From assembly GCF_058153355.1 (NCBI RefSeq), contig NZ_CM177019.1: a stretch of 64,000 bases of DNA. One strand, written 5' to 3'. Made by a program: the position numbers. This document shows positions 35,292-37,654 of the stretch, in pieces (the stretch's first letter is position 1; each line of letters opens with the position of its first letter).

Positions 35292-37654
35292 TCATCCTCT
35301 TTATCGACTCACGCGCTAAACCGGCGCGCCAGTGCGTAACTGCTGTAACAAACGCTCCACGGGAGCCGCCAGGCCAACTGACGGCGGTTGCGCTAAGTTA
35401 TACCAGAGCGCATTGCCTTCATCCATGCAGCCGGTGAATGACGACACGGGAAGCCACATAGGCACAATATCTAAGTGGAAATGGCTGAAGGTATGCCGAA
35501 ACGCGGTCAGTTGCGTCAGGTTATCGGCAGAAATCTGCCGTTGCGCCAGCCACTGCCGCAAACTTTCTTCATCGGCAAACTGCGGGAAACAGTATAAACC
35601 GCCCCACAATCCGCTCGGCGGACGCTGCGCCAGCAATACTTCATCTTCGTGCTGTAACAGCAAAAAGTAGCCGGTGCGCTCCGGTAGCGTCTGTTTCGGT
35701 TTTTTGCCCGGATAAAGCGACCAGCTATTGTTGGCGGCGGCAATACATCCGTTTTGTAGCGGACAGAGCGAACATTTCGGCTTAGAGCGCGTACAAATCA
35801 TCGCGCCCAAATCCATCATCGCCTGGTTAAACCGTTCCACGCCAACCGCGGGCGTCACCTGCTCGCTTAAACTCCATAGTTTGTTCTCGACCTCTTTTTT
35901 CCCAGGCCAGCCGTTTACAGCATAGCAGCGCGCCAGCACCCGTTTGACGTTACCGTCGAGAATCGGAAAGTGCTTACCCAGAGAAAGCGAGAGAATCGCG
36001 CCTGCGGTGGAACGCCCGACGCCCGGTAACGCGGCAACCTCATCAAAGGTTTCCGGGAATTTACCGCCGTGTAAGGTGGCAACTTGCTGTGCCGCTTTAT
36101 GTAGATTGCGCGCGCGGGCGTAATAGCCCAGTCCGGTCCACAAGTGGAGAATTTCGTCCAGCGGCGCATTGGCGAGATCGGTCACCGTTGGGAAGCGCGC
36201 CATAAAGCGTTCAAAATAGGGGATAACGGTCGCAACCTGAGTTTGTTGCAACATCACTTCTGAGAGCCATACTTTGTAGGGCGTCTTGTCAATTTGCCAG
36301 GGCAGCGTTTTCCGCCCGTATTTATCGTACCAGTCCAGAACCTGGGCTGAAAATTGCGACGCTTGCATGGTCACCGAATTCACTGTTGTTGGGGGCAAGA
36401 TTGCAGCACAGCGACGGCAGGGTGTAAACCGGAACTTTCCGCAGCCACGGCCTTATCATGCTTGCATCCGGCAACTAACTTTGGATAATGCCCGTTTTCA
36501 GAACACTTTCACAAGCGACTAAATCTTTATGAAAAACGACGTCATCTCACCGGAATTTGATGAAAACGGCCGCCCACTGCGCCGTATCCGTAGTTTTGTG
36601 CGCCGCCAGGGGCGACTGACCAAAGGCCAGGAACATGCGCTGGAAAACTACTGGCCGGTGATGGGCGTTGAGTTCAGCGAAGATATGCTGGATTTCCCTG
36701 CGCTTTTTGGCCGTGAAGCGCCAGTGACGCTTGAGATTGGTTTCGGCATGGGGGCGTCGCTGGTGGCAATGGCTAAAGATCGCCCTGAGCAGGACTTCCT
36801 CGGCATTGAAGTGCATTCACCAGGCGTTGGTGCGTGCCTGTCTTCTGCGCATGAAGAGGGCTTAAGCAACCTGCGCGTGATGTGTCACGATGCGGTTGAA
36901 GTGCTACACAAAATGATTCCTGACAATTCATTGCGCATGGTACAGCTCTTTTTCCCTGACCCGTGGCACAAAGCGCGCCATAATAAACGCCGTATCGTTC
37001 AGGTGCCGTTTGCCGAACTGGTAAAAAGCAAACTGCAACTGGGGGGCGTATTCCATATGGCGACCGACTGGGAACCTTATGCGGAACATATGCTTGAAGT
37101 GATGTCTTCGATTGACGGTTATAAAAACCTGTCAGAGAGCAATGATTACGTACCGCGCCCGGCATCACGTCCGGTGACGAAATTTGAACAACGTGGTCAT
37201 CGTCTTGGTCACGGAGTATGGGACTTAATGTTCGAGAGGGTGAAATAATGGCAAAGAACCGTAGCCGTCGTCTGCGTAAAAAAATGCACATCGACGAATT
37301 CCAGGAATTAGGATTTTCGGTGGCATGGCGATTCCCGGAAGGTACATCGGAAGAACAGATTGATAAAACCGTTGATGACTTTATTAACGAGGTTATCGAA
37401 CCGAACAAACTGGCCTTTGACGGCAGCGGATATCTGGCCTGGGAAGGTCTGATCTGCATGCAGGAAATCGGCAAATGCACCGAAGAACATCAGGCGATTG
37501 TGCGTAAGTGGCTGGAAGAGCGCAAACTGGATGAGGTACGCACCAGCGAACTTTTCGACGTTTGGTGGGACTAAGAAAGCATACGGGCGATGACAAATGC
37601 AAAACTGTCTGATGCGCTACGCTTATCAGGCCTGGAAAGATGCACAATCGAGTA

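Follow-up and report, generated by a model that had tools for sequence, protein, structure and literature searches.

Two REP ends in the window (the whole stretch of 64,000 nucleotides analysed here) are very probably near-cognate non-targets of IS621, judging from their sequence and that of the guides: the bridge RNA of this element matches each of them with its left guide, while its right guide leaves them unmatched beyond the CT core. Both lie within BIMEs, and in both the terminal CTAC of the REP is replaced by CTGG. A sequence-only reading of the window had listed the two as unoccupied matches to a 9-nt guide string, and most of that description stands. At the yggL-yggN BIME, ATCAGGCCT followed by GG sits exactly at the 37625-37635 (plus strand) given for it, between the end of the yggL ORF at 37574 and the start of the yggN ORF at 37758. 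The sequence of the second site is likewise present, but its coordinates were 2 nt off, the true position being 16966-16976 rather than 16968-16978. Both match the guide string, the first with an A at position 4, the single mismatch that it shares with the site of IS621 copy 3. Left out of the earlier list were a third empty match to the 9-mer, ATCAGGCCT followed by TA at 21331-21341, and three empty Y-REP ends, ATCCGGCCTAC. The empty sites and their settings are as follows:

37625-37635, plus strand: empty site 1, ATCAGGCCTGG, at the end of a REP in the yggL-yggN BIME.
37604-37635, plus strand: the Z2-type REP of the yggL-yggN BIME, CTGTCTGATGCGCTACGCTTATCAGGCCTGG, without the usual terminal CTAC.
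16966-16976, plus strand: empty site 2, ATCGGGCCTGG, in the sslE-pppA BIME, at the end of its second REP unit.
21331-21341, plus strand: the third empty 9-mer match, ATCAGGCCTTA, within a coding ORF and outside any REP.
19326-21386: the 686-aa ORF around ATCAGGCCTTA, gspD-like by synteny.
37652-37662, minus strand: the partner Y-type REP end of the yggL-yggN BIME, ATCCGGCCTAC, with CTAC present and C at position 4, empty.
16884-16894, minus strand: a Y-REP end of the sslE-pppA BIME, ATCCGGCCTAC, empty.
58589-58599, minus strand: a further Y-REP end, ATCCGGCCTAC, empty.

The window also holds three copies of IS621, which share 100% identity along their 1,280 nt and each carry an intact 326-aa recombinase ORF. 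They have the length of the element (~1.28 kb), CT at both junctions, the 326-aa ORF and a bridge RNA in the left end, and homologous copies are labelled 'IS110-like element IS621 family transposase' in RefSeq. The copies and the target halves that flank them are:

15562-16841, plus strand: IS621 copy 1, with the recombinase ORF at 15754-16734 (326 aa).
15576-15753: bridge RNA of copy 1, with the left guide (LTG) at 15625-15633 and the right guide (RTG), GTAG, at 15653-15656.
15650-15652: a possible extension of the copy 1 RTG, UGC.
45247-46526, plus strand: IS621 copy 2, with the LTG at 45310-45318 and the RTG at 45338-45341 (by offset from copy 1).
61880-63159, minus strand: IS621 copy 3, with the LTG at 63088-63096 and the RTG at 63065-63068 (by offset from copy 1).
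15553-15561 and 16842-16843, plus strand: occupied site 1, left half ATCGGGCCT and right half AC.
45238-45246 and 46527-46528, plus strand: occupied site 2, left half ATCGGGCCT and right half AC.
63160-63168 and 61878-61879, minus strand: occupied site 3, left half ATCAGGCCT and right half AC.

The junctions read ATCGGGCCT/IS/ACAGAC for copy 1, ATCGGGCCT/IS/ACAAGG for copy 2 and ATCAGGCCT/IS/ACACGT for copy 3, so that the difference first noticed, GG after the empty 9-mers against AC at the three occupied sites, was confirmed on the window sequence. ATCRGGCCT has nine occurrences in the window where 0.9 would be expected, a count reached in none of 100 shuffles; the excess arises because REP repeats and IS copies supply the occurrences, which comprise three IS621 left junctions, three internal guide strings and the three empty sites. 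The full target ATC[AG]GGCCTAC is occupied in 3 out of 3 cases, and no unoccupied example was found within the 64-kb window, while none of six near-matches (three to the 9-mer only and three with C at position 4) is occupied (Fisher p = 0.012). That identical copies fill every ATC[AG]GGCCTAC in the 64-kb window suggests that transposition occurred in a recent burst. Among 5,426 complete E. coli genomes, none carries exactly this IS621 variant; the best match was 99.6% identical and most were at ~97.7%.

The sslE-pppA BIME, where the gene names are taken from other genomes, is composed of two tandem Y+Z REP units of ~88 nt that are near-identical (15474-15561 and 16888-16976). The first unit ends in CCTAC and holds IS621 copy 1, and the second ends in CCTGG here, with empty site 2 lying 125 bp downstream of copy 1. 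The second unit is the more variable, ending in ATCGGGTCTTC in strain 53. A 367-aa ORF (16749-17852, plus strand) begins in the right end of IS621 and crosses the BIME into pppA; it is an artefact, because an in-frame ATG lies upstream, and the pppA start annotated in other genomes corresponds to approximately 17044 of the window. An Rfam match to the sRNA ES036 (CssrF) at 61843-61886 (plus strand; 40.4 bits, gathering threshold 37.6) spans the right-end junction of copy 3 and is probably BIME-derived sequence with no distinct gene. A match to the sRNA C0719 (6993-7214, minus strand; 285.6 bits) and one tRNA gene (28949-29021, minus strand) bear no relation to the GG sites. The best backbone match was NZ_CP074749.1, from goat strain R32_14_1F, which is 100% identical over the yggL-yggN query and the pppA flank; the interval from 16975 to 37300 measures ~20.3 kb in the window and ~41.9 kb in that genome.

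How IS621 selects its target is already established, both experimentally and structurally, since 2024: an 11-nt target, a 4-nt RTG and low tolerance of mismatches. The bridge RNA reads the 11-nt target ATC(G/A)GGCCTAC through the LTG and the RTG (PMC11208160, PMC11208158), which sit in its target-binding loop and both include the CT core (PMC11208160). The left guide, AUCGGGCCU (9 nt), base-pairs with the target's bottom strand and corresponds to A50-U58 (PMC11208158). The right guide, 5'-GUAG-3' at G77-G80, pairs with CTAC at positions 8-11 of the top strand (PMC11208160; PMC11208158), that is, with tC11-tC8, and after top-strand exchange it keeps positions 10 onward while accepting the incoming donor core (PMC11208158). 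Durrant et al. 2024 have already determined, with a high-throughput mismatch screen, the positional requirements that the sequence-only reading proposed to derive. An A is tolerated at position 4, where it gives an rG:dT pair; at other positions one mismatch is poorly tolerated and two are tolerated still less. The natural target 11-mer ATCAGGCCTAC together with the fully matched ATCGGGCCTAC accounted for 96.21% of insertions in a genome-wide assay (PMC11208160).

We aligned the bridge RNA of the window to the published 177-nt wild type (Durrant Supplementary Table 2). At 178 nt it shows only three differences, all in the stem-loop between the guides, and the guides themselves are intact in the window copies, with ATCGGGCCT as the LTG and GTAG, preceded by TGC, as the RTG. 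The changes, at 15635-15642 in copy 1 and at equivalent positions in the other two copies, comprise G60A, C65U and the insertion of a single C; with G60A, a possible G-U pair at the base of the stem would become A-U. No Rfam 15 family matches the bridge RNA at the gathering threshold. The window copies therefore represent the published element three times over with identical LTG and RTG, and positions 1-9 of the GG sites match the LTG once the rG:dT wobble is allowed; what differs from the published targets is GG in place of AC at positions 10-11, with loss of RTG pairing past the core.

Position by position, both sites agree with the IS621 target over positions 1-7, which fit the LTG (AUCGGGC, with A allowed at position 4) as ATCAGGC at 37625-37631 and ATCGGGC at 16966-16972, and over the CT core at 37632-37633 and 16973-16974. 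They depart from it at positions 10-11, where GG (37634-37635 and 16975-16976) stands instead of AC. When the sequences and intact guides observed here are read through the pairing scheme and low mismatch tolerance taken from the literature, the change of the terminal GGCCTAC to GGCCTGG at the two REP ends would leave the LTG fully paired at both sites, position 4 of the one at 37625 forming an rG:dT wobble. The RTG would pair with the CT core only, G10 forming at best an rU:dG wobble and G11 an rG:dG mismatch. Pairing from position 10 onward holds the right half of the target in the target-binding loop after top-strand exchange, and without it productive recombination is not expected, so that the GG sites would stay empty. 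The mismatch at positions 10-11 may by itself be sufficient to block these two sites. The proposal that recognition extends to the bases just 3' of the CT core thus agrees with the published RTG pairing, and the RTG of the window is unchanged. The GG sites show no departure from the published bridge-RNA model.

We searched 5,426 complete E. coli genomes for IS621 at either site. The junction query for the site at 37633 joined 100 nt of its unique left flank to 60 nt of the IS left end, and that for the site at 16974 joined 60 nt of the IS right end to 100 nt of its right flank. No IS621 junction was found at 37633 in yggL-yggN (0/5,426), nor at 16974 (0/5,426), and so neither GG site is seen to be used in any of these natural genomes. 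Of the 5,426 genomes, 5,423 have an uninterrupted yggL-yggN BIME, and the segment downstream in the sslE-pppA BIME is continuous in all 3,408 genomes that matched well. The GG end at yggL-yggN is not peculiar to the window: ATCAGGCCTGG is also present there in K-12 MG1655, NCTC86 and AMA1167, and an exact 72-mer of the variant occurs in 491 complete genomes.

The zero at one locus is weak evidence taken alone, because even a good site is, individually, occupied in few natural genomes. A matched site with AC is provided by the rhlE-ybiA REP. Its 34-nt left half, CAAAACTGTCTGATGCGCTACGCTTATCAGGCCT, is the same as that of the yggL-yggN REP, including the GTC stem mismatch, and it continues as ACGTGAAC, with AC after the CT core. 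IS621 is present at this REP in strain K99B and the site is empty in ES6; by the same junction design it was occupied in 150 of the 5,426 genomes. As the 150 genomes do not represent phylogenetically independent events, the contrast of 150 with 0 is qualitative. We based this count on the left-end junction with its unique flank instead of a right-end query, as right-end queries for the three occupied sites and for rhlE-ybiA also matched insertions in other BIMEs (at least 80% coverage, 83-91% identity), the off-locus matches arising because the right flanks of BIMEs are repeated. Read qualitatively for the same reason, the right-end queries placed IS621 at the copy 1 site in 16 other genomes, at the copy 2 site in ~1 and at the copy 3 site in ~3. 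The first of these sets includes strain 53 and 15 other genomes with a canonical IS621 at the same site in the first sslE-pppA unit, which points to repeated targeting or an old insertion; NZ_CP074749.1 was not among the junction matches for copy 1. The suggestion that the GG sites can serve as natural negative controls is valid, and their usefulness in that role is modest.

An account in which the GG sites are competent and stand empty by chance, IS621 having yet to land there, could draw on the low per-site occupancy seen even at perfect targets (the ~1 genome at the copy 2 site and ~3 at the copy 3 site) and on the presence of IS621-like sequence in just 2,244 of the 5,426 genomes. We regard it as highly unlikely. 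Chance does not account for 0/5,426 at a GG site when 150/5,426 are seen at the AC site with the identical left half, nor for every perfect 11-mer in the window being filled and both GG sites being empty, including the one that lies 125 bp from a copy. Nor does it explain why GG is missing from all of the distinct natural junctions and published targets considered below.

Further support for recognition of the bases after the core comes from natural insertions elsewhere. A scan of public contigs with the IS621 right end gave one genome-contig locus (a single one, because the collection has one genome per species) and 40 metagenome loci; with two E. coli loci added, the set comprised 43 junctions, representing 29 distinct sites. 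All 29 of these external sites have A at position 10; at position 11, 27 have C and two have T, and positions 12-14 are variable. AT follows the core at metagenome loci L003 and L006/L007 (ATGATGG... and ATTTAATAGG...), where T11 would keep an rG:dT wobble.

The published targets lead to the same picture. Durrant Supplementary Data 2 lists 834 natural targets for elements with the TBL ATCGGGCCTAC, and ATCRGGCCTGG is found 0 times among them. Counts in the file are 596 for ATCAGGCCTAC, 14 for ATCRGGCCTAT, three for ATCAGGCCTAG and two for ATCAGGCCTGC. Truncation artefacts, recognisable because they run into IS-internal sequence, account for at least one of the AG and one of the GC entries; the rare variants that seem genuine have T at position 11 or, in one of two cases, G at position 10. 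These keep a G:T or U:G wobble with GUAG and therefore fit the base-pairing reading. Insertion of IS621 at CCTGG in related genomes, which the sequence-only reading had named as the observation that would speak against it, was thus found at neither GG site in the 5,426 genomes, and GG occurs at none of the 29 sites and in none of the 834 published targets.

GG as such is compatible with IS110 chemistry. Other IS110 orthologues in Supplementary Data 2 use ACCAGGCCTGG targets (target_seq2038-2041), which have CCTGG around the CT core in common with the empty sites. They differ in being other elements and in the left part of the target, ACCAGG versus ATCAGG, and from the covariation result of the paper we infer that they carry a matching right guide. 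A separate set of IS621 relatives in the Durrant data has the TBL ATCCGGCCTAC and uses exactly the Y-REP type of end. Guide variants thus seem to partition the REP types, because the relatives with the ATCCGGCCTAC TBL use the Y-REP ends that the IS621 of the window leaves empty.

As members of the E. coli REP/BIME class, the empty sites have the imperfect palindrome GCC/GTC-TGATGCG...ATCAGGC, with the length of ~30-35 nt and the capacity for a hairpin that mark a REP, an intergenic position and an inverted Y-type REP partner; they differ in ending with CTGG instead of CTAC (GTAG on the other strand) and, at 16966, in a degenerate stem. Pairing with an inverted REP of the other type is found at both, with the Y-REP ends on the opposite strand. 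The conserved terminal CTAC/GTAG tetranucleotide of REPs is the RAYT recognition element, and neither GG site has it. Compared with the REP query GCCTGATGCGCTACGCTTATCAGGCCTACG quoted in PMC11208160, the REP at 37604-37635 is the same except for GTC in place of GCC and GG in place of AC. It lies between yggL and yggN and its hairpin folds at -4.9 kcal/mol, and the degenerate REP at 16942-16978 forms a weak hairpin of -4.0 kcal/mol (z = 0); the occupied REPs fold at -7.0 to -8.4 kcal/mol.

CCTGG fits the Dcm motif CCWGG. A block other than guide pairing could accordingly be sought in the degenerate hairpins, on the strength of these folding energies, or in Dcm methylation, as core C8 would be 5-methylated at a CCTGG site. 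We consider such a block even less probable than chance. A weak hairpin can be ruled out as the cause of emptiness, since the rhlE-ybiA REP is used despite the same left arm with its GTC stem mismatch. Conversely, the yggL-yggN REP of K-12 has an intact GCC stem and yet ends in GG, and insertions there were seen in none of the 5,426 genomes. The published mechanism, moreover, pairs the RNA with double-stranded DNA and involves no hairpin (PMC11208158). Methylation is opposed by the insertion of other IS110 elements at ACCAGGCCTGG; it could add to the block, but is not needed to explain it.

The least probable explanation is that insertions at the GG sites occur but are purged by selection, polar effects on yggN or pppA being one conceivable cause. 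It has in its favour that gene starts lie 70-125 bp beyond both sites (yggN at 37758, pppA at ~17044). Against it, the sslE-pppA intergenic region tolerates IS621 only 125 bp from the GG site, in the window and in 16 other genomes, and all known IS621 sites are similar intergenic BIMEs; nor would it explain the global lack of GG flanks.

Failure of the right guide to pair beyond the CT core thus remains our preferred explanation for the empty GG sites. Reference 16 of Durrant 2024 is said to be Choi, Ohta and Ohtsubo 2003. Durrant 2024 cites that reference for the insertion of IS621 into REPs as something already known (ref. 16; PMC11208160), and the significance of the present result beyond confirmation is small. 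It is highly improbable, in our estimate, that the CCTGG ends, instead of reflecting drift alone, are host escape variants that have persisted across E. coli through immunity to IS621, possibly aided by Dcm, a reading for which the identity of the yggL-yggN variant in K-12, NCTC86 and AMA1167 can be cited; if it were true, polymorphism at REP ends would be the trace of an arms race in which REPs and bridge recombinases oppose each other. The yggL-yggN and rhlE-ybiA REPs amount to a natural experiment, in which the same left half is followed by GG or by AC and is occupied in 0 or in 150 genomes. Overall, the GG sites indicate that in wild genomes IS621 targeting depends decisively on the two nucleotides that its short right guide reads.
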